A stretch of DNA of 64,000 bases from positions 12,154 to 76,153 of the forward strand of contig DATELQ010000004.1 of assembly GCA_035276475.1 (NCBI GenBank), written 5' to 3'. This document shows positions 298 to 55,256 of the stretch, piece by piece. Position 1 is the first letter of the stretch, and the number at the start of each line of letters is the position of its first letter. The stretch is from Thermoanaerobaculia bacterium. GTDB lineage: Bacteria > Acidobacteriota > Thermoanaerobaculia > Gp7-AA8. The position numbers were made by a program, and so were the translations under genes. Below the pieces are notes generated by a model. That model was not told where the DNA came from. It did not search any database and saw only the letters and a list, made by a program, of their open reading frames with translations.

Positions 298-708
298 ATG
301 AGAAGCCTAGGAATTGCACTCATTCTCGGGCTGATCGGAGGCACTGTACTGGCCGCCGATCCGCCTCAGCGTCCTGATCCATTTGTCATCCTTGCGCCGA
401 AGGAAACGCCGCGCGTCGACGTCGAGATCGGCGCGGCCGAGATCAACACGCACGCCGCCCGCATCCGCGTCGCGTACCTGCCGCGGATGGCGCCGCTGCC
501 CGGCACGCTGCCGCACAGCATCGCCACGATGCCGAACGCGTTTCAGCTGTTGAACGTGTCGTTCCCTCAGCGTTTCTCGCCGAGGAGCGTCGCCGGCATC
601 AGCGAGCCGAACGTGACGATCGTCAGGAATGCGGACGCGACGCGCGAGCCGCTGCGCCTCACGGCAAAGCCCTCGGCGCCGAACACGCGCGCGTACTCGG
701 CGAAGTGA
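298..708 (+). CDS. questionable small secreted protein (signal peptide MRSLGIALILGLIGGTVLAA)
   Basis: N-terminal signal-peptide-like segment; first ~25 codons have low GC3 atypical for this genome; 3' end overlaps the convergent methyltransferase by ~140 nt. Confidence 0.25.
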   Translation: MRSLGIALILGLIGGTVLAADPPQRPDPFVILAPKETPRVDVEIGAAEINTHAARIRVAYLPRMAPLPGTLPHSIATMPNAFQLLNVSFPQRFSPRSVAGISEPNVTIVRNADATREPLRLTAKPSAPNTRAYSAK

Positions 709-1931: not shown

Positions 1932-2447
1932 ATGCGACGCGCTCTCGCTCTCTTCGCGTTCCTCGCGGCCGCACCGCTGCACGCGCAGGTGGTCGACCTG
2001 GTGTTTAAGACCGAGGACCTGGTGTTCAACGTAGTCGACATGGCCGGCAAGGTCGAGGACCTGACGGTGCAGGAGACGGACACCGAGGTCCGCATCGAGC
2101 TCGCCGCCGACGTGCTCTTCGACTTCGACAAGGCCGACCTGCTGCCGAAAGCGGAGGAGACGCTGACGAAGGCCGCCGACCTGATCAAACAGCGCAACGC
2201 GAAGGGCACGGTGCGCATCGAAGGGCACACGGACGCGAAGGGAAGCGACGCCTACAACCAGAAGCTCTCCGAGCGCCGCGCCGACGCGGTGAAGCGCTGG
2301 TTCGAGTCGCACGGCCTGCACCAGACGTGGGCGACGGCCGGCTTCGGCGCGAAGAAGCCGGTGGCGCCGAATGCGAAGGCGGATGGGAGCGACGATCCCG
2401 AGGGGAGAGCGAAGAATCGGCGCGTGGAGATCGTGGTGAAGAAGTGA
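1932..2447 (+). CDS. OmpA family protein (OmpA C-terminal peptidoglycan-binding domain)
   Basis: Signal peptide MRRALALFAFLAAAPLHA; 'GHTDAKGSDAYNQKLSERRADAV' OmpA_C motif. Confidence 0.8.
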   Translation: MRRALALFAFLAAAPLHAQVVDLVFKTEDLVFNVVDMAGKVEDLTVQETDTEVRIELAADVLFDFDKADLLPKAEETLTKAADLIKQRNAKGTVRIEGHTDAKGSDAYNQKLSERRADAVKRWFESHGLHQTWATAGFGAKKPVAPNAKADGSDDPEGRAKNRRVEIVVKK

Positions 2448-3985
2448 CACGGCGCGCGGCTCTGGCGCTCATCGCGGTGATCGCCATCATCGCTTGCGCG
2501 CGCGTCGCCGCCACGCACGCCGTTTTCAGTCCGACGTGGGACGAGCCCGCGCACATCGACATGGGCTACGTCTATCTCACGCAGCACGTCGTCTACTTCA
2601 CCGACCACCCGCCCCTCGGCCGCGCCGTCGCGGCGTTTCCGCTGCGGCACGCCGCCGTCGATCCGCACGATCCGAAGCGCTGGATCGACGTCTGCGCGTC
2701 GGCCGGAGACCTGATGGCGGGCGTGGTGCGCTCGCGCCGGGCCATGCTCGTCTTTCTCTTCGCGGCCATTGCCGCCGCCGGCTGGTGGGGCATGCTGGTC
2801 TTCGGTCCGGTGACCGGCGTGCTGACGAGCGCCGTGCTGGCGCTCATCCCGAGCATCCTCGCGCACGGCGGCCTCTCGACGACCGACATGCCCGCCACGG
2901 CCGGCTTCGCGCTCGCCGGCGCCTGTTTTCAATGGTGGCTGCCCAGCTCGACCTGGACGCGAACGGGTCTGCTCGGCGTCGCGCTCGGAATCGCCGCGCT
3001 GACGAAGTTCACCGTTCTCCCCTTCTTCGGCATCGCGGCGGCGGTGATGCTCGTGCGCAACCGCCGCCGGCCGGACCGGAAGCTCGCCGCCGCTCTGGTG
3101 ATCGCGCTCCTCGTCGTCTGGCTCGCCTACTTCCGCGAGGTGAAGCGGATCTCGCAGATCGGCGGCGACGCCCGCACGGTGGCACACCAGCTGCTCGGCA
3201 ACGATTGGTTCGCAACGACGGTCCGCCTTCCCGCGGCACGCTACGTCTTCGGCATTCTCCAAACGCTGCAGCACAATCGCGAAGGGCATGGGTCGTTTTT
3301 CATGGGCCGCGTGCGCGACGCGGGGACGTGGGTGTACTTCCCGGTCCTCTTCGCGATCAAGACGCCGATCCCGATTCTGGCGGCGCTCGTGTTCGGACTC
3401 TGGCGCGTCCGGCGAGCGCCCGCCGGCGTCGAAATCGCCGTCATCGCCGCGGCGCTGCTCCTCTTCCTCCTCCCCAGCCGCATCAACATCGGCATCCGCC
3501 ACGCGCTGCCGCTCTACGTGCCGCTGGCGATGCTCGCCGCGTACGGCGCTTCCGAGGCGTGGAGATCGATGCGGCTGCGCGTCGTTGCCGGGGCGCTCGC
3601 GGCTTGGCTGATGGCGAGCTCGGTTCTGGCGCATCCCGACTATCTGCCGTGGGCCAACGCCTTCGCCGGCCGCGACCCGGCCTGGTTCGCGCTCGACAGC
3701 AATTACGACTGGGGCCAGGACTTCCTGCGCCTCGCGGCGGAGTGCCGCAAACGCCACATCACGCAGCTCGGCGCAAACCTCTTCGGGATGGAGGAACATG
3801 AAGCGATCGGCCTCCCGCCGACGCATCCGATCGACGAGCAGCTCGCCTCGACCGGCTGGATCGCCGTGAGCGAGAACAACGTCCGCTCCGCGCAGGCGCG
3901 CAACGCCGGCAGCTACAGATGGCTGACGGAGCCGTTCCGCTACGAGCGGGTGGGGAAGACGATCCGGCTGTATTCCGTGCCGTGA
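2444..3985 (+). CDS. GT39/ArnT-like membrane glycosyltransferase (dolichyl-phosphate-mannose protein mannosyltransferase-like)
   Basis: Multi-TM protein with 'DEPAHIDMGY' style N-terminal loop and many TM helices; GTG start overlapping OmpA stop (GTGA). Confidence 0.75.
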   Translation: MTRRAALALIAVIAIIACARVAATHAVFSPTWDEPAHIDMGYVYLTQHVVYFTDHPPLGRAVAAFPLRHAAVDPHDPKRWIDVCASAGDLMAGVVRSRRAMLVFLFAAIAAAGWWGMLVFGPVTGVLTSAVLALIPSILAHGGLSTTDMPATAGFALAGACFQWWLPSSTWTRTGLLGVALGIAALTKFTVLPFFGIAAAVMLVRNRRRPDRKLAAALVIALLVVWLAYFREVKRISQIGGDARTVAHQLLGNDWFATTVRLPAARYVFGILQTLQHNREGHGSFFMGRVRDAGTWVYFPVLFAIKTPIPILAALVFGLWRVRRAPAGVEIAVIAAALLLFLLPSRINIGIRHALPLYVPLAMLAAYGASEAWRSMRLRVVAGALAAWLMASSVLAHPDYLPWANAFAGRDPAWFALDSNYDWGQDFLRLAAECRKRHITQLGANLFGMEEHEAIGLPPTHPIDEQLASTGWIAVSENNVRSAQARNAGSYRWLTEPFRYERVGKTIRLYSVP

Positions 3986-44409: not shown

Positions 44410-46587
44410 GTGAAGCGTCTCCTCGTTCTCCTTGTCCTCGGCGTAACCCCTGCCCTGTTCGCCTCCGTCGGCACAGTCCGGCAGAACTTTCTCGACTACT
44501 ACGCGGCCGCCGGCGCCGACCGCAGCGCCCCGCGCATGGCCGACGCGCTGGGCACGCTCGAGGCGCAGACGCGCGACGCCACCGCCCCCGGCTTCCTCCT
44601 CGCGGACGGCACGTGGAGCGACATCGACTACAAAGAAACGCCGAGCGGCGCGTGGTCGCCGTGGGACCACTTCCGCCGCCTGACCACGATGGCCAAGGCG
44701 TACCGAACGCCCGGCCAGCGCTACTACAACGACGAGACCCTGCGGCAGCAGATCGAGGCCGCGCTCGGCCAGGTGCCGTCGTTCTACGGCAAGACCACGC
44801 TGCCGGTCGGCAACTGGTGGTTCTGGACCCTCGGCGCGCCGCTCGACCTGGGGCCGACGCTCGTCCTGATGCGCGGCAGCGTCTCGCAAAAGATCTTCGA
44901 CGACTGCGTGGCCACGCTGCAGGTGCACATCGGCACGTCGCCCACCGCGAAGGGCCTGGTCGGACCGACGCCCGTCGGCGAGAACCTCGTCTGGTCGTGC
45001 TTCACGCACCTCTGTCTCGCCCTGGCGCGCGACGACGCCGCGATGCTCGCCGCCGTCGGCAGCGCCCTCGGCACTGCCTGCACGACAACGGCAGGCGACG
45101 GCATCCAGGTCGACTCCTCGTTCCACCAGCACGGCCCGCAGCTCTACACCGGCGGCTACGGCGGCTCGTTCGCCTACGACGTCTCGCGCCTCGTGCTGCT
45201 GCTGCGCAACAGCGAGTTCGCGCCGGCGCCGGCGGCGCTCAACAGCTTCGCCAACTACGTCGCCGACGGCATCGCCTGGTCGCTCTACGGCCCCTATTTC
45301 GACGTCTCGGTCGTCGGCCGCGAGGTGGCGCGCTCGTCGACGAGCGGCATCAACGGCGTGGCCGCGCTGCTGCAGGCGTCGACGTTCAACTCGACCCGCA
45401 ACGCCGAGATCAAGAGCGCCGCCGCGGCCGCGCTCCAGTCGTGGCGCTGGCCGCTCTCTCCAGAGCTCGCCGCGCTGGCGACGCAGACAACGACGAATGC
45501 AGCATGGCCCACCGGCCACCAGCACTACTACACCTCCGACTACACGGTGCACCGCCGCCCCACTTGGTTCGCCTCGGTGAAGATGTTCTCCGCGCGCACG
45601 AAGTCGGGCGAGAACACGAACGGCGAGAATCTCCTCGGTTCGCGCCAGTCCGACGGCCGCTTCTACCTCGTCATGAACGGCGACGAGTACTTCGGCAACG
45701 ACAGCTGGCCCGCGCTCGACTGGACGCGCCTCCCCGGCATCACCGTCGAGCAGAAGGCCGACGCGGCGGACGACCAGTACGGCTACGGCACGCGCCTCTT
45801 CGCCGGCGGCACGGGCGACGGAAGGAACGGCCTGTCGGCGATGGAGCTCGCGCCGGTCAACTCGGCGCTGACGGCGAGGAAGAGCTGGTTTTTCTTCGAC
45901 GACACGATCGTGTTCCTCACAAACAGCATCACGTCCCCGTCCTCTTACAGAGTGGAGACGATCATCAACCAGTGGCCGCTGCACGGCAGCGTCACGCGAA
46001 ACGGCAACTGGCTCGCCGCCGACAACGTCGGCTACTACGTCTACCCGCAGGCGGCGGCGCTGAACGTCTCGACCGCCCCGCGCACCGGCACCTGGGCCGC
46101 CCTCGGCGGCTCGACCGACACGACGCCGCGCACGCAGACGTTCCTCACGCTCTGGCTCGACCACGGCGCGACTCCGACGAACGCCGACGCCGCGTACGCG
46201 ATCGTCCCAGGCGCGAGCGTCGCGACGATGTCATCGTTCCTCCCGCCGACGATCCTCGCCAACAACGCCAACGTCTCCGCCGTGACGAGCGGCTCGACGA
46301 CGGCGATCGTCTTCTGGTCGCCGCGCGCGAGCGTCGCCGGCTACACCGCAGACGCCGCCAGCGTCGTCTACGCGACGACCACCGGAAGCGCGCTGCAGCT
46401 CGCCGCCGCCGACCCGACGAACGGCACCGGCGTCTTCCACGTGACCGTCCCCGGCCGCTGGCTCACGACCGACGTGCCGTCGACGTTCGACGGCCACGGC
46501 ACGACGCTGACGCTCCCCCGCGGCGGCGCCACGACGCGCGTGACGCTCAGTCCGCCGCCGGCGCGGCGAAGGGCGGCGGGAAAATGA
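44410..46587 (+). CDS. polysaccharide lyase family 8 (hyaluronate/chondroitin AC/xanthan lyase-like), secreted
   Basis: Signal peptide; 'GNWWFWTLGAP' Lyase_8_N motif, 'SSFHQHGPQLYTGGYGGSFAYD' catalytic His/Tyr region, 'RQSDGRFYLVMNGDEY'. Confidence 0.85.
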   Translation: MKRLLVLLVLGVTPALFASVGTVRQNFLDYYAAAGADRSAPRMADALGTLEAQTRDATAPGFLLADGTWSDIDYKETPSGAWSPWDHFRRLTTMAKAYRTPGQRYYNDETLRQQIEAALGQVPSFYGKTTLPVGNWWFWTLGAPLDLGPTLVLMRGSVSQKIFDDCVATLQVHIGTSPTAKGLVGPTPVGENLVWSCFTHLCLALARDDAAMLAAVGSALGTACTTTAGDGIQVDSSFHQHGPQLYTGGYGGSFAYDVSRLVLLLRNSEFAPAPAALNSFANYVADGIAWSLYGPYFDVSVVGREVARSSTSGINGVAALLQASTFNSTRNAEIKSAAAAALQSWRWPLSPELAALATQTTTNAAWPTGHQHYYTSDYTVHRRPTWFASVKMFSARTKSGENTNGENLLGSRQSDGRFYLVMNGDEYFGNDSWPALDWTRLPGITVEQKADAADDQYGYGTRLFAGGTGDGRNGLSAMELAPVNSALTARKSWFFFDDTIVFLTNSITSPSSYRVETIINQWPLHGSVTRNGNWLAADNVGYYVYPQAAALNVSTAPRTGTWAALGGSTDTTPRTQTFLTLWLDHGATPTNADAAYAIVPGASVATMSSFLPPTILANNANVSAVTSGSTTAIVFWSPRASVAGYTADAASVVYATTTGSALQLAAADPTNGTGVFHVTVPGRWLTTDVPSTFDGHGTTLTLPRGGATTRVTLSPPPARRRAAGK

Positions 46588-46761
46588 GCGCCGATCGAGA
46601 CAGGTATGGATTGAGCAACGACACTGTTGCGGCGTTGTTTATGGAATGTAATGGTTTCAGTAACTTCAACAACGACCTTAAACTAGGCTTATCATTCGCG
46701 CGTACTCCTGTCATGCTTGCGCCACTGGTGACGCACTGCAAACTGCCGAAAGGGGGCGCTC

Positions 46762-47055
46762 ATGCAAGCTACGGCGACCGTTCCGGAGCTTAGCCGCCGG
46801 CTTGGTGCCAATGCGCGCTCGCTGGTGCGGACATCGCCGGCCAACGCTCGCGTGACGGCGGCAGTCGTGCTCCTCCCGCATGCGCCTGTAAAGGAGATCA
46901 TCGCGCTCCTGCAGAAGGCTGGCTGCGAAATGCTCTATCGCGTCGATTCGCAGCACCTCCTCGGCGTCGACGCACCGGTCGGCCTGCTCGACCGTCTGGC
47001 GCGCCTCGACGGCGTCACGTACGTCGAAGTCGAATACTCGCTTCAGCCTTCCTGA
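46762..47055 (+). CDS. stand-alone subtilase propeptide/inhibitor I9-like protein
   Basis: 'VVLLPHAPVKEIIALLQKAGCEMLYRVDSQHLLGVDAPVGLLDRLARLDGVTYVEVEY' follows the Inhibitor_I9 pattern; AAGGGGG SD; 3' end overlaps convergent S8 gene by 13 nt. Confidence 0.5.
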   Translation: MQATATVPELSRRLGANARSLVRTSPANARVTAAVVLLPHAPVKEIIALLQKAGCEMLYRVDSQHLLGVDAPVGLLDRLARLDGVTYVEVEYSLQPS

Positions 47056-48860
47056 AGAAAGTCCTCCAGCGCAATCGTCTTCTCGCCGGCCGGCGTCAGC
47101 TCGAGCGCCTGCTTCACATTCAGCGACCCGAAGCCATAGGCCGCATCCGGTTTCTCCGGCGGATCGCTCGACGCACGCAGAATCGAACGGATCACCCAAC
47201 TGGTGAGCTCGGGGTTCTTCTGGAGCATCAGCGCGATCACGCCGGCCACGATCGGCGTGGCCATGCTCGTGCCGGACATCCTGAGCCGCACGCCCTTTTC
47301 GGGCGTGCCCTTCGCCTTGGTCGAGACGATGCCGGAGCCCGGCGCCACGAGATCGGGCTTCGTTCGTCCGTCCCGCGTGCCGCCGCGCGAGCTGTTGGGC
47401 GAGACCATCTTCGCAGCGCGATTGAGGTTGCCGACGGCCACGCAACGATGTGACGTGGCCGGCGTCGTCGTCGACCGGCGCGTGTCGCCGTCCGTCCCTT
47501 CGCCGATGAACTCCGGCTGGCTGTAACCCTTCCCGGAGCGCTCCACCCAGGCGTCGACCGTCCCGTGCCGCACGCGATCGGCGATCAAACCGATTCTCCA
47601 GGTGCCGGCGCTGGCGTCGCCGGAAATGCGGATGCGGATCCGCGCTTCGCCGTTTTCAGGCGCGAAGCGGACGGAATCGATTTCGACGTCGACGTCGCAC
47701 TTCGTCGTCAACACCTTCTCATAGGGCGCACGAACTTCATCCAGCGGCGGGTGCTTCTTATTTTCGTGCGGGCATTGCACGACGACACCCATTTGATCGA
47801 CGGCCGAATACCAGATCTCCACGATCGTCGGCGCGGATTTGGCGTGGTCGGGGGCAATCCTCAGCTGCAGCTCCCTCCGCTGGCCCTCTGTGAATTTCAA
47901 CGTCGCGTGCTGCGCCGGCTGATGCTGATTGCCGGCGGCGACGGCGGCGGCGTAGCCGCCGCTGGTGAGGTGGCTGTCGATGGTGCGCTCGAGAATCGAC
48001 TCGCCGTCGTGCGCGCCGAGGTTCTGTCCGAGGCTCATGTTGATGACGCAGGGGCGCCCCTTTTCCAGTGCTTTGGAAAAGATGTACGCGACCGCCGCCG
48101 TCAAATTCGTCGAATTCGTCAGCGTAACGTTCCGGTCCTCTTTCCGGGCCGCCACGAAAATGATATCGGCGTGCGGCGCGACGCCCACATAGGAACCGCC
48201 TTCGCGGCCGCCGGACGATCCGGAACGGCCATTGCCCGCCGCAATCCCGGTCACATGCGTTCCATGCTCCTGGGACTGATGCCGCACGACTTTCTCCGGG
48301 TCGGTCAAGGCCTCCGTCAAATACTTGTTGGTGTACTCGACGCCGCCGAATTGGTGCTCCGGATCCTCGAATTCGGGATCCTCCGCTTCTCTCTTCAGCG
48401 TCTGGTCCCACAAATAGAGAATGCGCGAGCTGTCGCCGTCGATGAAATCGGGCTGCCGCCAATCGAGACCATCGTCGATGATGCCGATGATCACGCCGCG
48501 GCCGCGGTTTTTCTGGTCGATCTCCGGAATGTCCGGAATGCCGAGGGCGGGAATGGTCTCGTCGAGGGCAAACGCGATCGGCGCCCCTCGCTCGAAGTAG
48601 CTCACTTCCGGCGCATCGTGGAGCGCGTCGATCTCCGGCAGCGCGAGATAGGCCGCCCACGTCTGTGGGGCGACGCGCATGCGAGGCTTGCCTTGCAAGG
48701 CCTTCGGCAGTTCCTCGCCGCGCAGCACCACGAGCAGCGGAACGAGCATCTCCTGTAAGGAGCCGTCGGCTGCCAGGCTGCCGACGAGACCGCTCGCTTC
48801 GTTCGAATGCCACTCGCGCATGAGGCGCCGAATCTCGGGATCCGCTTTCGAATATCGCAT
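47043..48860 (-). CDS. S8 family serine peptidase (subtilase), no signal peptide
   Basis: Asp 'IIGIIDDGLD', His 'HGTHVTGIAAG', Ser 'GTSMATPIVAG'; GAGGAG SD 8 nt before ATG at 48860; N-terminal region itself I9-like. Confidence 0.85.
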   Translation of the reverse strand: MRYSKADPEIRRLMREWHSNEASGLVGSLAADGSLQEMLVPLLVVLRGEELPKALQGKPRMRVAPQTWAAYLALPEIDALHDAPEVSYFERGAPIAFALDETIPALGIPDIPEIDQKNRGRGVIIGIIDDGLDWRQPDFIDGDSSRILYLWDQTLKREAEDPEFEDPEHQFGGVEYTNKYLTEALTDPEKVVRHQSQEHGTHVTGIAAGNGRSGSSGGREGGSYVGVAPHADIIFVAARKEDRNVTLTNSTNLTAAVAYIFSKALEKGRPCVINMSLGQNLGAHDGESILERTIDSHLTSGGYAAAVAAGNQHQPAQHATLKFTEGQRRELQLRIAPDHAKSAPTIVEIWYSAVDQMGVVVQCPHENKKHPPLDEVRAPYEKVLTTKCDVDVEIDSVRFAPENGEARIRIRISGDASAGTWRIGLIADRVRHGTVDAWVERSGKGYSQPEFIGEGTDGDTRRSTTTPATSHRCVAVGNLNRAAKMVSPNSSRGGTRDGRTKPDLVAPGSGIVSTKAKGTPEKGVRLRMSGTSMATPIVAGVIALMLQKNPELTSWVIRSILRASSDPPEKPDAAYGFGSLNVKQALELTPAGEKTIALEDFLQEG

Positions 48861-48871
48861 CGTCGTTCTCC

Positions 48872-49249
48872 TCAAGAGCCGATGGAGAGCCAAATCGTTT
48901 GCCGGTACCAGGCAAAGTGAAAATGCTGGAGGAAGTCCCTTCCCAGAATGTTGGCGTTCAACCTCGCAAAGCCGCCCACGATCGAAACGAAAAACGGTGC
49001 GGCACCGAGGTGAAGGAGGCACGGCGCGTAGTGCAGCACGGAGCCGGCCGGCGTCTTCAAAAACGGGGTCTTCGCTGCTTTTTCGACGTCGTATCCGAGG
49101 GCGGAGGCCAACGAGTCGTCGACGAGCGTGTGCGAGCTGCCGGTGTCGATGCTAAACACCGCCGGCAGGAACCGCCCCGATGGGCCGGCCACGGAAAGGA
49201 CGATCCTCGGCTCAGTTTCGCTGCGCGATTGGAACGTGAGCGCAGTCAT
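48872..49249 (-). CDS. retropepsin-like aspartic protease (Asp_protease_2 type)
   Basis: 'FSIDTGSSHTLV' DTG active-site motif and C-terminal 'NILGRDFL' flap/dimer motif as in retroviral proteases; ATGA coupling with upstream gene. Confidence 0.7.
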   Translation of the reverse strand: MTALTFQSRSETEPRIVLSVAGPSGRFLPAVFSIDTGSSHTLVDDSLASALGYDVEKAAKTPFLKTPAGSVLHYAPCLLHLGAAPFFVSIVGGFARLNANILGRDFLQHFHFAWYRQTIWLSIGS

Positions 49250-49827
49250 TCCGGCCGCTCCGGCATTCTCCAGAACAGAATCCCGTCCGTTTGGGCAATT
49301 CGTTGCGCGAGCTCGTCGAGCGTCGCCGCGGAATCGACGACCTCGGTGCCGTTGGCGGCGATCCACTTCGTGGCGTGCTGCTTTGCCAGAGACGCGTAGT
49401 TCTTGTGGACCCATTGCGCGGCCGGCGACCCTTGCCGCACGCGCCTCGTCGTGCACGCCTCCTGGATCGACGCGGCGACGCGCTGGTAGACATCGCCGCC
49501 CGACCGCGAATGCGCCGCGTTGATGTAGTCCCACACGCCGAGGCGCATCGCCCGTACGCAGAACGGCGCGTCGACGATCGGCGCAACGAGGATGACGACC
49601 GGGATCGCCGCGAGCAACGGCCGGATGTCCGAAAGCTCGCTCGTTTCGTTGTTCGTCCAGCGTACGGCGATTTCAAATTGCACTTGATCGCGCTGAATCT
49701 GTTCGACGGCTCCCGGGTGCGCCACGACGGCGGAGAGCGGGGTCTCATCGACGGTCGTGTGCTCGAGAAAATCCTTTACCTGGTTCATCACGCCGTTGTT
49801 CGTGGGGTCGAAGAGGATCACCCTCAT
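49246..49827 (-). CDS. receiver (REC)-like protein with degenerate phospho-acceptor site plus C-terminal unknown domain
   Basis: 'MRVILFDPTNNG' and 'PVVILVAPIVDAPFCVRAMRLGVWDYINAAH' match REC beta1 and beta4/alpha4-beta5; no Asp at the expected beta3 position; ATGA overlaps on both sides. Confidence 0.55.
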   Translation of the reverse strand: MRVILFDPTNNGVMNQVKDFLEHTTVDETPLSAVVAHPGAVEQIQRDQVQFEIAVRWTNNETSELSDIRPLLAAIPVVILVAPIVDAPFCVRAMRLGVWDYINAAHSRSGGDVYQRVAASIQEACTTRRVRQGSPAAQWVHKNYASLAKQHATKWIAANGTEVVDSAATLDELAQRIAQTDGILFWRMPERPE

Positions 49828-52800
49828 CCTCTGCCACCCCGCATCCTCGTCGGCAGTGTGATGAGGAATTCAGCGCCCGACTGCCGCTCCGGCGACGAGA
49901 TCGCTCCGGAATGGGCGCCGATGAAGCGCTTGGCGATAACCAGGTGATCGCCAGGATCGCCTCCGAACGAGGCCAACGCCTCGAGCTTGTCGGATGGCAG
50001 CGGCGGCCCTTGATCGGACAAGCGGATCTGGATGGTGTCGCCATTCGTGCCGAGGGAGAGCGACAGGGCCATCGGAAACGACGGCTCGGCGGCGGCGGCG
50101 GAACGGTCGCCGATGATCTCGGAGAGCGCGTTGTCGACGGCGACGGTGTCGACTTCCGCCTCCAGCCGGCCGGCAGGCAGGATCGGCTCGATGGCGACGT
50201 TGCCTGAGGCGTTTTGACGGTCGATGAACGCCCGGACGAACGCCGTCACGTCGACCCTCGACGGACGGATCTCCGGCTCGGCGCGAACCTCGGCGATGTC
50301 GTTGAAGATCTGTTCGATCTTCCGGAAGAGCTCCGTCAGCGCGCGCGTGTGGGTGACGTCGCTCCCCGCGCGCTCGAGCCGGTAGACGATTCCCTTCGCC
50401 ACTGTGAGGTTCGTTACGAGCTGTTCCGTTCCTTGCAGAACGACGCTGCGCATCGTCTCGTCTTTCGCGTCCGAGATCCTCGTCTCCTGCAGCGTCAGTT
50501 CATTGAGCGCGGCCCCCGCCTTTCCGATGGCCGCGAACATCGTCCGGTCGAACGAATGGAACCACCCGCGGGCGTGATGCCAGAGGTTCAGAACCGCCAG
50601 GCACTGGTCCTCATGGACAAGCGGAATGCCCACGAAGCCGTGGACCCAGGGCACCGGCGGACGAGCCGGCACGGAGACCTGGATGTCATACTCGAGAAAC
50701 GGCTCTTTTTGCTCGACGGCAATGTTGGTCAGGAACTTCGGGTCATTGGTAAGAAAGGAGAGGTCCTGTGTTTCGGATCCGGTCCAGTCTCCACTGATCG
50801 CGAACGTTTCCCACCGCGGCTCTCTCAGCACCATGAAACGCGCCAGATCGGCTCCCAATAAGCGGCACACGCGGTCGGTCCATTGTTGCAGCACGTGCTT
50901 CCGGCGCGTTCGCCCGGGCGGCAGCGGCGTGTCGTCCGACACCAAACTGAACCACTCCCAATCCGCCATTTTGGCAGTGGCCTCGAACGGATCCCGCGAT
51001 AGCAGCTTCGTCGCGTATTCGACCATGGCTTCGATTTTCTCAATGAGATCGTCGGAGAGCTCGTCGGCGTCGCTCGCGCGGTCGACGTTCACGTTCAAGA
51101 TGCCCTTGAATGCCGGCACAGGCCCTTTATGCGCCGTCGTGCTGATCCGCATGAGCAACACCGATTTGTCTTTGCTCGGCGACGCAATGAGCTTGGAGAG
51201 GTGTTGTGCGGAAACCTCAGTCGCCGCGGCCTTCCGCACGGATTTGTAGACCGTTTTCGCGCCGCCGACGGCCCGCAATGCGGCGAGCAGTTGCGCATTC
51301 TCAAAAAAGATCGGCGCCGGCACGGGCGAACGGCGCGGCCAGATGTCGAGGGCGACGAAGCGCCCTTCCTCGAACTCGTGATAAAAAACGACGGTCGCAT
51401 CGCGCCGCTCATTGTGAATGGCCTGAATGAGCGTGCGGATGGTGCGGTCGTTGTCGGGGACTTCGAGCATCAGGCGTTTGAGCCGCTCGTCCCACGGCAC
51501 GGGCTCGGCATCGTCGCCATATCCGAGGTCCGCGAAGAGATGCCCGGCCGCGCGCAGCCACTCGTGCCGGTATTGCGCTTCCTCCCGCGCGAAGGCCAAC
51601 CCGAGCAGGGCACGCTCGACCGCGGGCTGAAGATCCTTTTCCATGTTGGCCTTGCTGAGCTCCAGCGCCAGCGTCAGCTCCGTCTCGCGCGAGGCACAGG
51701 CGATGCGCAGCACGTCCGGAAGGTTGCGGATGAGCCGCTCCCGGTCGCTCTTGCCGAGGGCGCGGATACAGGCCGCGGCGCACGCTTCGTGCTCGCCGGC
51801 GTCGCCTCCCTCCACGAACGTCTTGTCGTGGACGGAAGTGAGGCGCCGCTCCACGTGCGCGGCGAGCGCGGCGAGGCTCGCCGGCGGCTTCGTCGATTTT
51901 TTATCGCGCTCGATGCGCCGGTCCACGAGCAACGTGATGATGGTGACGGTGTAGATCTCCAAATTCTCATTCGACGCGGCGGCGTCGAACAGACGCTCGA
52001 AGATCTCGTAGATTTTTCCGGGATCGCCGTACCCGCCCCCCTGCCTGCGCCAGGCTTCGTATCGCGCGGCCGCTTCGCGCAGCACATTGCGAACCCATTC
52101 CCCGTCGCCGGCCTGTGCGCGCCCTAAGAGTCGCTCGATGTTGCTGATGCCGTCGGGGCTGTTGAGGTCATAGTTCTCCTCATCGTCGAACAGCGCGGCG
52201 CTCGGCGACGGCATGGCCTCGTAATCAGCGTCGTCGCCCGACTCGACGAGCGTCTCGCCGCGCAGGAGCGCTTCCTTCTTCTCGTCGATGAACGCTAGGA
52301 GCCGGCTCGACTGCGCCGAATGCCGATACTCGGCGAGTTGGCGCACGGCCTCGGAACGCCCGAAGCGGTGCGACGATCCGGGCGAGTTGATCGACAGCCA
52401 TTGAAAGCTGACGATGTTCGCCCGCGACCGCTGGATGAACGCCGAGGCGATCTCCGGCGTCATCCGGTTGATGACGACGTAGATGACGGCCTCGCCCGCG
52501 TACGCCAGCGCCTCCAGGAGGCGCGCCACTTCCGTTCCCGACGAGGCGGCGAAGCAGAGCGCTGCGACCTTCATCCCTTCCAGGCCGAACCGGGCCCTGC
52601 CTTCGAGATCGTCGAGCGTCTTGATCGATGATGCCTTGCTGATCGACGGGCGGAGCGTCTCCGGCAGCGCCTGCTTGGCATCTTCGGCCAGCACGAGAAC
52701 GTCCGGCTTGAATCGATCGATCTCGTCGTGGATCGTCTGTTGAAAGGCAGCGTGCGAAAGCAGCTTCCGCGGCCAGATGTACGTCGGAATCTCCTGTCCG

Positions 52801-55256
52801 CGAAAGATGACCCGGTTCCGGCTCAAGGCGTGGGCATCGGCGAGGAGGCGCCAGAAGCGGCCGTCGGTGAGCTTCTTCTCGCGGTCGCTGGTGCGGCGCA
52901 GCGGCAGAAGCGAATCGCTGTCGATCGTCACCATGCGCCACTCGGCTTCCGGGCCGCTCGTCGGCTTCTCGCGGAGTTTCTCCACCGGCACTGTTGCCAG
53001 CGCTTTGAAGCGGCCTTTTCCGCGCAACGCGGAGAGGGCCTTCCATTCGCTCCATTCCGACGCCGACAGCGTGTCGAGGAGGCAGAGGATCCATCCCTCG
53101 ACATTGCTCTTGGCGAACTCCTCCGCCGCAAGGTTCAGCGTCCGCCCCGAACCGCTGACGCCGACCAGGAAGACCACTCGTTTGCCGGGACGCAATTCCT
53201 TGCCGAGCTCTCGGACGGCGTCTCCGCCATGCACGTCCTTGTAGTGCGGCAGATTCACCGTGTCGATGGCCGGGAGCGCTTTGAGGGCCAGCGGCAGGAG
53301 CCGGTCGGCATAAATCGAAAACGAGATGGCCATCTGCGGCGCAATGCGGAGGATCTCCTTCTCCAGCCACTCGTCGGCGAGGCTTTGCATCTCGTATTTG
53401 TGCTCGAGAAACCGCGGCGGGACGTAGACGTCGCAGAAGCGATTGCCGGGGAGCAGATACCAGACTCTCTCCTCCTCGGCGCGCTGCCGGGCGATGTCCT
53501 CCTGAACGAGGGTCTCGACGTGGATGGGGAGGAGAGCGCGGAACGCGGCGTGGCTGAGCGCGAAGACGTCGAAGGCCGGCTCGATGTAGACGATCGTTCC
53601 GCGGCTGACCATGCGCACGACCGACTGGTTTCGGGACAAGGCGTCGTGGACCCAGTTGCGCTCCGCCTTCGTCAACGCGCTGTCGCCGTCGTGGCTGAAG
53701 CGGTCGAGAGTGACGGGCTCTCCTTCGATGGCCGCGTTGATTCCGTCGACGAGAACGCGGCGGGCGAGCTCCGTGTCGCCCGCGTCGCCCGCTTTCCTGA
53801 GATTCTCGTTGTCGACGAGAAAGTTGTGCACGACGCTGCCGGCGCGCGTCTTCACCGTCACCGCCGGAGCGAGAACGCCGTGCTCGCGCCAGAGCTCGAC
53901 CAGCGGCTCCGCCGTCGAGAGGATGGTCTGCGTCCGCGTCGGAGCATTCAGCAGCCAGAGACGATGCTTGGCGGAAACGAGGAACGTCCGGGCGATCGCC
54001 GCGGCCGCGCTCTTGAGCGACTCCTCCTGCCACCCGTCCGTGCCGCTCATGTCGACGAAGAGCACGTCGTGCGGCTCCAGCGTGGTCACTCTCTGCGAGA
54101 TCTGGTCGGCGTCCGCCGCCGTCTCCAGCGGAAGGGCGACGGGGTTGAACGCGGGAAGGTCGCTCGCCGTCGTGTGAACGAATACGTAGGTCTTGCGCTT
54201 CTTGGGCGTTCGATGCGGCAGAAGGATCTGGAAGTAGCTTCCGGCCGGCGCCCACGGGCCCGGCGTCTCCCTCGGCGCCAGGGCGTCGCGCTGCAGCGGA
54301 TCGTTGAAGAAGTCCCAGAACAACTCCACGCCGCCGCGGCGGCCTTCGAAGTCGTATCCGGAATAGGCATAGAGCACGCCGCGGAACTGGCGGATTTTCT
54401 CTTTGACCGCCCACAGGCCGCGCGTGTGCTGCCGAAGCGTTTGCTTGCTCGTCGAATAGGCGTCGAAGGCCCACTCGGCGATCGCTTCCGGCCGCGTCTT
54501 CTCGAAAGCCTTTGCCGCCTTCCGCAGCGAATCGACAAAGCCGACGCCCGCGTCGCCGATGACGATCTCCGTCACGCCGTCGTGGCTGATGTTTTGGAAC
54601 AGCCGCGCCTCCCATTCGGCGGCGTGAACATTGCGCTGCGCGGCGGTGCGAGCGTCGGGGTTGCTCACGTGCGCGGTTGCGAATCCCGGCACCGTGCCGG
54701 CGGAATGTTCGGCGGCGTTTGTCCAGAGCTCGTGAACGACGACGTCGGCCAGCCCGGAGACGTCGTACTCATCGGAGAAGCCGGCCGTCTCCAGCACGTG
54801 CGCCAGCTCCTTGTCCGCCGACCAGTGCTGCAGGTCGGGAGACGTATTGGCCGCCTGGATGGCTTGCAGATCGAGCACCCGCGGCGTCTTGCTCTGGCGC
54901 CACTGCTGCGCGTCCGCAGCGTTGACGTTCACCTTGAATTGATGTTCGTGAGCGAGGGCGATGAATTTCCACCGCTCCAGAAAGGCGCTCGTCGTTCCCG
55001 AGGCCGGAAGCTCGACCGAAACCGTGGTCGCGCCGGCAACGGCCAGCCGCTTCACGATCAGCGACAGCGCCACCAGCGGGAGGTGGCCGATCCACGTCGC
55101 GCGGCGCAGATCGATGACCGCGTCGACGTTGCCGAGCTGCCCCGAGCCGCGACGTCCGAACTGCGCTTCGTACTGCTGTAAGAGGTTCTGGTACTGCTGA
55201 CTGCCGAGATAACCGTCCTCGCAGTCGGCGGGGACACCGACAGTAATCGTCGCCAA
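49824..55256 (-). CDS. 1810-aa multidomain sensor protein: N-terminal GHKL-ATPase-like segment, P-loop-like/PRTase-like middle repeats, GAF-like domain, C-terminal histidine-kinase HATPase_c
   Basis: N-terminal 'VVVHELWTNAAEHS ... EIVIGDAGVGF'; central 'RVVFLVGVSGSGRTL'; GAF-like 'VHGFVGIPLVHEDQCLAVLNLW'; C-terminal N-box 'VDNALSEIIGD', 'IRLSDQGPPLP', 'GGDPGDHLVIAKRFIGAHSGAI'. Confidence 0.85.
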   Translation of the reverse strand: MATITVGVPADCEDGYLGSQQYQNLLQQYEAQFGRRGSGQLGNVDAVIDLRRATWIGHLPLVALSLIVKRLAVAGATTVSVELPASGTTSAFLERWKFIALAHEHQFKVNVNAADAQQWRQSKTPRVLDLQAIQAANTSPDLQHWSADKELAHVLETAGFSDEYDVSGLADVVVHELWTNAAEHSAGTVPGFATAHVSNPDARTAAQRNVHAAEWEARLFQNISHDGVTEIVIGDAGVGFVDSLRKAAKAFEKTRPEAIAEWAFDAYSTSKQTLRQHTRGLWAVKEKIRQFRGVLYAYSGYDFEGRRGGVELFWDFFNDPLQRDALAPRETPGPWAPAGSYFQILLPHRTPKKRKTYVFVHTTASDLPAFNPVALPLETAADADQISQRVTTLEPHDVLFVDMSGTDGWQEESLKSAAAAIARTFLVSAKHRLWLLNAPTRTQTILSTAEPLVELWREHGVLAPAVTVKTRAGSVVHNFLVDNENLRKAGDAGDTELARRVLVDGINAAIEGEPVTLDRFSHDGDSALTKAERNWVHDALSRNQSVVRMVSRGTIVYIEPAFDVFALSHAAFRALLPIHVETLVQEDIARQRAEEERVWYLLPGNRFCDVYVPPRFLEHKYEMQSLADEWLEKEILRIAPQMAISFSIYADRLLPLALKALPAIDTVNLPHYKDVHGGDAVRELGKELRPGKRVVFLVGVSGSGRTLNLAAEEFAKSNVEGWILCLLDTLSASEWSEWKALSALRGKGRFKALATVPVEKLREKPTSGPEAEWRMVTIDSDSLLPLRRTSDREKKLTDGRFWRLLADAHALSRNRVIFRGQEIPTYIWPRKLLSHAAFQQTIHDEIDRFKPDVLVLAEDAKQALPETLRPSISKASSIKTLDDLEGRARFGLEGMKVAALCFAASSGTEVARLLEALAYAGEAVIYVVINRMTPEIASAFIQRSRANIVSFQWLSINSPGSSHRFGRSEAVRQLAEYRHSAQSSRLLAFIDEKKEALLRGETLVESGDDADYEAMPSPSAALFDDEENYDLNSPDGISNIERLLGRAQAGDGEWVRNVLREAAARYEAWRRQGGGYGDPGKIYEIFERLFDAAASNENLEIYTVTIITLLVDRRIERDKKSTKPPASLAALAAHVERRLTSVHDKTFVEGGDAGEHEACAAACIRALGKSDRERLIRNLPDVLRIACASRETELTLALELSKANMEKDLQPAVERALLGLAFAREEAQYRHEWLRAAGHLFADLGYGDDAEPVPWDERLKRLMLEVPDNDRTIRTLIQAIHNERRDATVVFYHEFEEGRFVALDIWPRRSPVPAPIFFENAQLLAALRAVGGAKTVYKSVRKAAATEVSAQHLSKLIASPSKDKSVLLMRISTTAHKGPVPAFKGILNVNVDRASDADELSDDLIEKIEAMVEYATKLLSRDPFEATAKMADWEWFSLVSDDTPLPPGRTRRKHVLQQWTDRVCRLLGADLARFMVLREPRWETFAISGDWTGSETQDLSFLTNDPKFLTNIAVEQKEPFLEYDIQVSVPARPPVPWVHGFVGIPLVHEDQCLAVLNLWHHARGWFHSFDRTMFAAIGKAGAALNELTLQETRISDAKDETMRSVVLQGTEQLVTNLTVAKGIVYRLERAGSDVTHTRALTELFRKIEQIFNDIAEVRAEPEIRPSRVDVTAFVRAFIDRQNASGNVAIEPILPAGRLEAEVDTVAVDNALSEIIGDRSAAAAEPSFPMALSLSLGTNGDTIQIRLSDQGPPLPSDKLEALASFGGDPGDHLVIAKRFIGAHSGAISSPERQSGAEFLITLPTRMRGGRG

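Follow-up and report, generated by a model that had tools for sequence, protein, structure and literature searches.

The window analysed here is a stretch of 64,000 nucleotides from a contig of a member of the Thermoanaerobaculia, and the feature under study is a gene of 97 codons on its forward strand (46762..47055), which starts with ATG and encodes a predicted free-standing mimic of a subtilase prodomain, a description drawn from the open reading frame, the selection acting on it, AlphaFold2 (AF2) and Foldseek results and alignment with hhalign. The coordinates and the translation given in a preliminary description were borne out by the sequence, as were two further claims made there, a tail-to-tail overlap of 13 nt (47043..47055) with the gene of an S8 protease, whose 3' end lies at 47043 on the reverse strand, and a good Shine-Dalgarno sequence, which reads GAAAGGGGG (46748..46756, forward strand) and precedes the ATG by 5 nt. 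Upstream, on the same strand, a gene for a polysaccharide lyase of family 8 (44410..46587, 725 aa, GC3 0.94) ends 175 nt before the small gene. The spacer between the two genes (46588..46761) is AT-richer and carries a weak terminator-like hairpin (46615..46630) as well as a sigma-70-like promoter candidate, TCAACA-18-TATCAT (46666..46695, forward strand). A consensus scan upstream of the small gene returned this one site against 0.1 expected, and its -10-like element is conserved as TATCAT or TATGAT in the aligned upstream regions of two orthologous loci, L001 and L006. The candidate promoter implies that the small gene may be transcribed on its own. Because the 3' ends overlap by 13 nt, there is no space for a terminator between the small gene and the S8 gene. 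An Rfam scan of positions 46300..47300 found no RNA family.

A four-gene operon on the reverse strand (47043..55256) ends with the S8 gene, as judged by gene calls and profile scans. The first gene (49824..55256) encodes a protein of 1810 aa with a GAF-like region (residues 1454-1578) and an HATPase_c-like region (residues 1706-1803); both matches are C-terminal and below threshold, and no sequence relative of this protein was found in the PDB. It is followed by the gene of a 193-aa protein (49246..49827) with weak receiver-like (FixJ) and DUF5678-like matches, which lie below the curated cutoffs, and by the gene of a retropepsin-like aspartic protease of clan AA (48872..49249, 125 aa) with a DTG motif, which scores 25.3 bits with PF13650 (gathering score 24.3) and weakly with TIGR02281. 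The S8 gene itself (47043..48860) encodes 605 aa, with its start at the ATG at 48860 according to gene callers and the N-termini of homologues; the GTG at 49022 merely heads the longest open reading frame and was rejected as a start. The same cassette together with the convergent small gene is also found in L004/L005 and L009, where it is headed by orthologues of the 1810-aa protein (1791 aa in L004 and 1788 aa in L009). The GC3 of the cassette is 0.76-0.84, compared with 0.93-0.94 in the flanking genes, and because of this lower value a horizontal acquisition of the cassette is suggested.

Open reading frames as long as the small gene are unremarkable in the window, the DNA of which has a GC content of 67% and yields dozens of overlapping spurious frames in the list of open reading frames. 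This abundance of long spurious frames in high-GC DNA, along with an exact antisense frame that is open in the window, would favour the reading that the small frame is open by chance or is the decaying remnant of a duplication of the S8 5' end, in which case the role of the locus would lie in antisense or transcriptional interference with the 3' end of S8; the overlapping 3' ends would allow convergent transcription to disturb S8 expression. The pattern of substitutions, however, is that of a coding sequence. In gapless codon alignments of the window gene with the orthologues in L001 and L006, two proteins of the same length as the window protein and with 62% amino-acid identity, third codon positions carry most of the differences (61/26/20, 51/22/17 and 58/20/19). 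In the frame of the small gene the dN/dS ratio is 0.14-0.27; among the five other frames, four have ratios of 1.0-2.5, and the antisense frame that shares the third positions has one of 0.25-0.44 but contains stop codons in the orthologues. The Shine-Dalgarno motif is kept as GAAAGGRG in L001 and L006, and independent gene callers predict the small gene on two metagenome contigs with an identical protein. The 97-codon frame is a true gene under purifying selection. With a ratio this low that is specific to its frame, a stop position and length kept in 11 proteins down to 27% identity, a confident fold prediction and the conserved Shine-Dalgarno sequence, a chance or decaying frame is highly improbable and effectively refuted. 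The longer antisense frame (46711..47445) was likewise rejected as a gene; it shares sequence with the S8 coding region in a different frame, encodes an Arg-rich junk product and is interrupted by stops in the orthologues.

Relatives of the 97-aa protein are rare. An exhaustive single-sequence phmmer search of 1.84 billion cluster representatives yielded four credible relatives, and a profile search of a collection of 5.8 billion protein clusters brought the family to nine proteins. Two further members, L010 and L013, were obtained by reading and searching the flanks of S8 homologues, L013 (a genome instance) by an HMM search of these flanks, which gives a total of 11. No match was obtained when genome contigs and metagenome contigs were scanned with the alignment of the small proteins or when the small protein was compared with plasmids by tblastn, and an S8 homologue on a rhizobial plasmid has no small partner gene at its locus. 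Two proteins retrieved by phmmer, P0004 and P0005, were rejected as relatives: they are large cell-surface repeat proteins, the E-values of which (7e-12 and 5e-9) are the sum of seven weak repeat matches. These two cases illustrate that repeat inflation can mislead even at such E-values.

The small gene was convergent with an S8 homologue in all nine distinct loci that show a family member in its context (the window, L001, L004/L005, L006, L007, L008, L009, L010 and L013). The tail-to-tail spacing ranged from an overlap of 13 nt to a gap of 25 nt in eight of these loci and was a gap of 153 nt in L013. The four-gene operon, in which genes for a giant protein (about 1800 aa), a receiver-like protein and a retropepsin-like aspartic protease precede the S8 gene, was present in the window, L004/L005 and L009, whereas in L007, L010 and L013 the pair of S8 gene and small gene occurs by itself between unrelated genes. 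The convergent pairing thus holds with and without the three upstream genes, so that it is the pair that forms the conserved unit. Divergence between pairs of small proteins correlates only loosely with that between their S8 proteins (r = 0.54 over 15 pairs). Related Csp-like S8 genes without a small partner were found in L012, in L093 and in most of L014-L092; the inhibitor proposed below is therefore not a general requirement of this protease family. On the forest-soil contig L004 (2005..3814) the S8 orthologue is split by a frameshift into two open reading frames (2005..3384 and 2933..3814), either a pseudogene or an assembly error, and the adjoining small gene is intact.

The genomic neighbourhood of the pair differs between genomes. 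In L007 (350..3748) the pair adjoins genes for Multi_ubiq, Prok-E2_E, ThiF/Prok-JAB, BubE and SDH_protease/NfeD proteins, an arrangement like that of a Bil-type ubiquitin-like conjugation system, and in L010 and L013 the neighbours are housekeeping genes. A 37%-identical S8 protein of Actinokineospora alba (L012, 5133..9863), which has no small partner, is encoded divergently from an 886-aa STAND NTPase with NB-ARC/AAA_16 and TPR regions. In L001 a tRNA-Glu(CTC) gene (367..442) precedes the ATG of the small gene (position 672) by about 230 nt. As a typical integration hotspot, this tRNA gene fits with mobility of the module; the window contains no tRNA gene.

Scans of the 97-aa protein with Pfam, NCBIfam and PADLOC gave no match. 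The preliminary description had likened the protein to the I9 propeptides of subtilisins and proposed a profile search with PF05922 (Inhibitor_I9), in which neither the window protein (E<=1) nor the nine family members (E<=10) were matched. It had also named the joint absence of an I9 match and of a propeptide fold as grounds against the likeness; the fold is present, and only the profile match is absent. What stood of the likeness is thus the propeptide fold, seen with AF2 and Foldseek, and the remote homology to the S8 prodomain, and what did not stand is sequence membership in PF05922. Because that match is lacking, the protein is best called I9-like by fold and remote homology and not a sequence-level member of I9.

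The AF2 model, computed from the nine-sequence alignment, has a pLDDT of 88.2 and a pTM of 0.77 and places its elements in the order helix (residues 16-24), strand (30-37), helix (43-52), two strands (56-61 and 66-72), helix (73-80) and strand (85-93), followed by a tail of low confidence. The best Foldseek match in the PDB was ProN-Tk-SP (E 1.5e-4, TMq 0.72, 96 columns); further matches were the Tk-subtilisin propeptide, the BPN' prosegment (1spb_P), pro-subtilisin E, the EpiP prodomain, the furin-bound PC1/3 prodomain and fervidolysin, and the entries matched include 3afg, 4jp8, 2zwo, 1spb_P, 2z58_B, 3whi, 3qfh, 9fid and 1r6v. The ferredoxin-like fold is common, and generic proteins of this fold (ribosomal protein S6, ACT-like) were also among the matches with similar or weaker scores. 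In a viral structure library S8 proteins ranked first, at scores that were not significant.

Homology was further addressed at the profile level. When the profile of the small-protein family was aligned by hhalign with a profile of residues 1-122 from 76 S8 proteins of the partner type, the probability was 95.6-95.8% (E 4e-9 to 7e-9) and the alignment included the N-terminal helix, whereas ten control windows taken from S8 residue 121 onward gave a probability of <=1%. The match between the small protein and the Tk-subtilisin propeptide was weak (E~0.1) and in the correct register. Pfam scans of family members returned sub-threshold matches only, to Fervidolysin_NPro-like (E 0.09) and CspB_prodomain (E 0.16) profiles. 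Precomputed matches to PF26036 ('Peptidase_inhib_put') exist for P0002, P0003, P0006, P0008, P0009, P0010 and the L009 protein, that of the L009 homologue at E<=1e-5 and the others marked weak, and none is on record for the window protein; a literature search found no mention of PF26036. Fold, structural neighbours, homology to the prodomain profile and the weak sequence matches are four independent lines that place the small protein among subtilase prodomains. The best explanation of these sequence and model data, probable together with the inhibitory role proposed below, is that the small protein is a paralogue of its S8 partner's N-terminal prodomain, encoded by a gene of its own.

The partner comprises a cis prodomain (residues 1-98; 48567..48860, reverse strand), delimited by AF2 secondary structure, pLDDT and hhalign, and an S8 catalytic domain with an inserted jellyroll (residues 99-605; 47043..48566, reverse strand), delimited by Pfam, NCBIfam, AF2 and Foldseek and bearing the motifs GIIDDG, HGTHV and GTSMA. 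It matches Pfam Peptidase_S8 at 1e-40, and the Asp/His/Ser triad is intact, with D129, H199 and S532 invariant among 69 homologues. The AF2 model (pLDDT 85.6, pTM 0.90) aligns almost end to end with CspC and CspA in Foldseek (E 1e-41 to 1e-37, 572-590 columns) and over 501-504 columns with CspB (E 1e-34), with TM values of 0.64-0.84 for CspC, CspA and CspB. The CspBA model NF040809 matches at 1.4e-53 with 181.9 bits against a cutoff of 1250, and the CspC model NF040808 at 129.9 bits against a cutoff of 675. The protease has the Csp-type architecture of prodomain, subtilase domain and central jellyroll, and by these cutoffs it is neither a CspBA nor a CspC equivalog. Its cis prodomain is modelled with a helix (residues 8-19), strands (40-46, 60-64 and 67-72), a second helix (74-81) and two further strands (86-91 and 94-97), followed by a disordered linker (99-114); it lacks helix alpha-1, and Gly replaces the second of the capping acids. 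The model agrees with the preliminary description, in which the protease was said to contain a propeptide, and the accompanying view that it is cytoplasmic is upheld by the absence of an N-terminal hydrophobic signal peptide. Since the small protein has no signal peptide either, the two proteins should share a compartment.

The C-terminus of the small protein has the register of a cleaved prodomain. Nine of the 11 family members end exactly 8 residues past the cap residue of a [VL][ED] motif, and the other two end at 7. The BPN' prosegment, which was crystallised after autoprocessing, ends with ...VAYVEEDHVAHAY, 8 residues past its cap residue, and the window protein ends with ...VTYVEVEYSLQPS, a tail of equal length; the Tk-subtilisin propeptide has the same 8-residue distance. 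In the alignment of VEVEYSLQPS-COOH (window) with VEEDHVAHAY-COOH (BPN'), E89 and E91 fall on Glu69 and Asp71, which are the helix-capping acids of the BPN' prosegment (PMC6993865). The tail of the small proteins has a hydrophobic residue (L/I/Y) at P4 and usually Pro at P2. In the hhalign alignment the last residue of the window protein, S97, lies opposite A98 of the S8 protease, where in the AF2 model the ordered cis prodomain stops and the disordered linker starts; this boundary at residue ~98 would be expected to be the site of autoprocessing. Because of its tail length, its capping acids and its alignment to A98, the small protein resembles a prodomain that has already been cut.

From the sequences and models, the probable function of the 97-aa protein is tight, product-like inhibition in trans of the neighbouring cytoplasmic subtilase of the Csp type. 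A dedicated inhibitor is the most likely function because a copy of the prodomain is always encoded tail-to-tail with the protease gene, and the putative role fits with the convergent pairing, the C-terminal register of a cleaved propeptide and the conserved capping acids. We infer physical binding, inhibition and a release step. The four-stranded sheet of the small protein would pack on two surface helices of the catalytic domain, E89 and E91 would cap these two helices, and the free tail L94-Q95-P96-S97 would lie in subsites S4-S1 with its terminal carboxylate at the catalytic serine, as does an autoprocessed propeptide. Transcription of the small gene would run from its own candidate promoter toward the protease gene; given this independent promoter and the convergent orientation, the level of the inhibitor could therefore be set apart from that of the protease and the operon, with transcriptional interference as a conceivable further effect of the overlapping 3' ends. 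The inhibitor would keep the protease off after the cutting of the cis prodomain, until it is itself removed. The term 'immunity-like', used in the preliminary description, names a possible further role that is speculative.

Precedent for such an action in trans comes from CspB. Its prodomain stays bound after cleavage; supplied in trans, it blocks active-site labelling, a block that is relieved by deletion of P3-P1, and it also sustains formation of the mature enzyme (PMC3567191). Prodomains of the I9 type serve as chaperones as well as inhibitors (PMC6993865, PMC3567191). These two activities also speak for another reading, in which the small protein would be a trans-acting folding chaperone that supplies the foldase function lacking in a degenerate cis prodomain, or an exchange factor that displaces a retained one, with maturation or activation of the protease as the net effect instead of restraint. 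If the cis prodomain is retained as in CspB, it would already fill the docking site, and some other role would have to be sought for a second copy; a chaperone or exchange function is conceivable because the cis prodomain may indeed remain bound in this way. The missing helix alpha-1 and the Gly in place of the second capping acid point in the same direction, as does the maturation of CspB with a prodomain supplied in trans. However, AF2 packs the protease's own prodomain confidently (pLDDT 92-95 over residues 41-90, pTM 0.90), many S8 proteins with an equally degenerate cis prodomain have no small partner, and the gene of a foldase would more naturally belong to the operon itself than lie in convergent orientation. 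A function in maturation is accordingly regarded as unlikely, and inhibition in trans is preferred.

An extension of the inhibitor model, which is doubtful at present but somewhat less so than the chaperone reading, would make the small protein the antitoxin-like safety catch of a conflict module for abortive infection or programmed proteolysis, with the protease as the toxic effector and the small protein as a labile antidote, the loss of which, on disturbed host gene expression or on a signal from the giant upstream sensor, would unleash the protease. This extension gains from the unrelated genomic contexts of the pair, from the low GC3 of the cassette relative to its neighbours and from the Bil-type genes beside the pair in L007 and the NB-ARC/TPR STAND NTPase beside the related S8 gene in L012. 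The S8 protein matches the PADLOC model 'subtilase' at 6e-34 and IetS models weakly; a literature search for subtilase in papers on PADLOC and anti-phage systems found nothing. A bacterial precedent for the loss of a subtilase-binding partner on a signal is the degradation of PopD, by which PopC is released (PMC6434023). On the other side, the small protein itself has no PADLOC match, its neighbours in L010 and L013 are housekeeping genes, and the tblastn search of plasmids recovered no homologue. In its most far-reaching form, which is equally tentative, the proposal would be a two-gene module of a protease toxin and a pseudo-product antidote that is mobile among soil bacteria; the five-gene version would be armed by three further proteins, namely a giant GAF/GHKL sensor, a protein of the receiver-like kind and a retropepsin-like protease by which the mimic is destroyed. 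If true, the module would be a cascade of proteolysis serving abortive infection or programmed cell death, and its antitoxin principle would be new, since the antidote copies the prodomain of the effector itself as a free-standing protein.

Stand-alone propeptide-like inhibitors of subtilases, assigned to MEROPS family I9, comprise POIA1 of Pleurotus, the yeast proteinase B inhibitor 2 (PBI2) and SPI-1 of Arabidopsis, and propeptide mimics are known as MIC5 of Toxoplasma and SUB1-ProM of Plasmodium (PMC6993865). The characterised stand-alone inhibitors that this source names come without exception from eukaryotes, and secretory or vacuolar compartments are where most of them work (PMC6993865); a literature search for stand-alone Inhibitor_I9 proteins in bacteria found nothing. 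With the eukaryotic I9 inhibitors the small protein shares a target subtilase that has its own cis propeptide, acidic capping residues and a C-terminal tail directed toward the active site, and with SUB1-ProM a gene that is syntenic with its target (PMC6993865), here its presumed target. It differs from them in being bacterial, in lacking a signal peptide, in its partner of the Csp type, in its invariably convergent gene and in the absence of a PF05922 match, and its inhibitory activity is putative.

Among bacterial systems, CspB (PMC3567191) resembles the S8 partner in combining a prodomain with a subtilase domain and a central jellyroll, and it is to a prodomain of this kind that the small protein is homologous; in Csp proteins, however, the protease and its inhibitory prodomain form one polypeptide, whereas here a separate gene encodes an extra copy, and the spore-germination context is absent (no SleC or CspA/C neighbours). 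PopC of Myxococcus xanthus is likewise a subtilisin-like protease with a separately encoded partner, PopD, which holds it in a cytoplasmic complex until PopD is degraded (PMC6434023); unlike the action proposed here, PopD blocks the secretion of PopC (PMC6434023). The best available hypothesis, drawn from sequence comparison and modelling, is that the small protein may be a new and rare bacterial addition to the stand-alone propeptide-like subtilase inhibitors, such a family being already anticipated by the name of PF26036, 'Peptidase_inhib_put'.

A family of about a dozen sequences, found in searches of 5.8 and 1.8 billion protein clusters, appears to use a eukaryotic-type trick on a cytoplasmic protease of the Csp type. 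It offers a handle on the function of Csp-like proteases outside the clostridia and on the five-gene cassette, and the small protein could serve as a specific genetic off-switch for Csp-like proteases. The structural prediction is clear, with the LQPS tail in the active site and E89 and E91 capping the helices. If a toxin/antidote or defence role is borne out for the pair, bacterial conflict systems would gain an inhibitor logic of a new kind.

A different arrangement was observed in four loci, where a small prodomain-like open reading frame lies upstream of a Csp-like S8 gene on the same strand (L014, 4243..4656; L015, 4236..4586, Hydrogenophaga pseudoflava NBRC 102511; L016, 4293..4634; L031, 4053..4433), with weak HMM E-values of 6e-4 to 0.5. 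The S8 protein of L015 has 1169 aa and also contains a cis prodomain. The products in L014 and L031 may belong to extracytoplasmic systems because of their hydrophobic N-termini.
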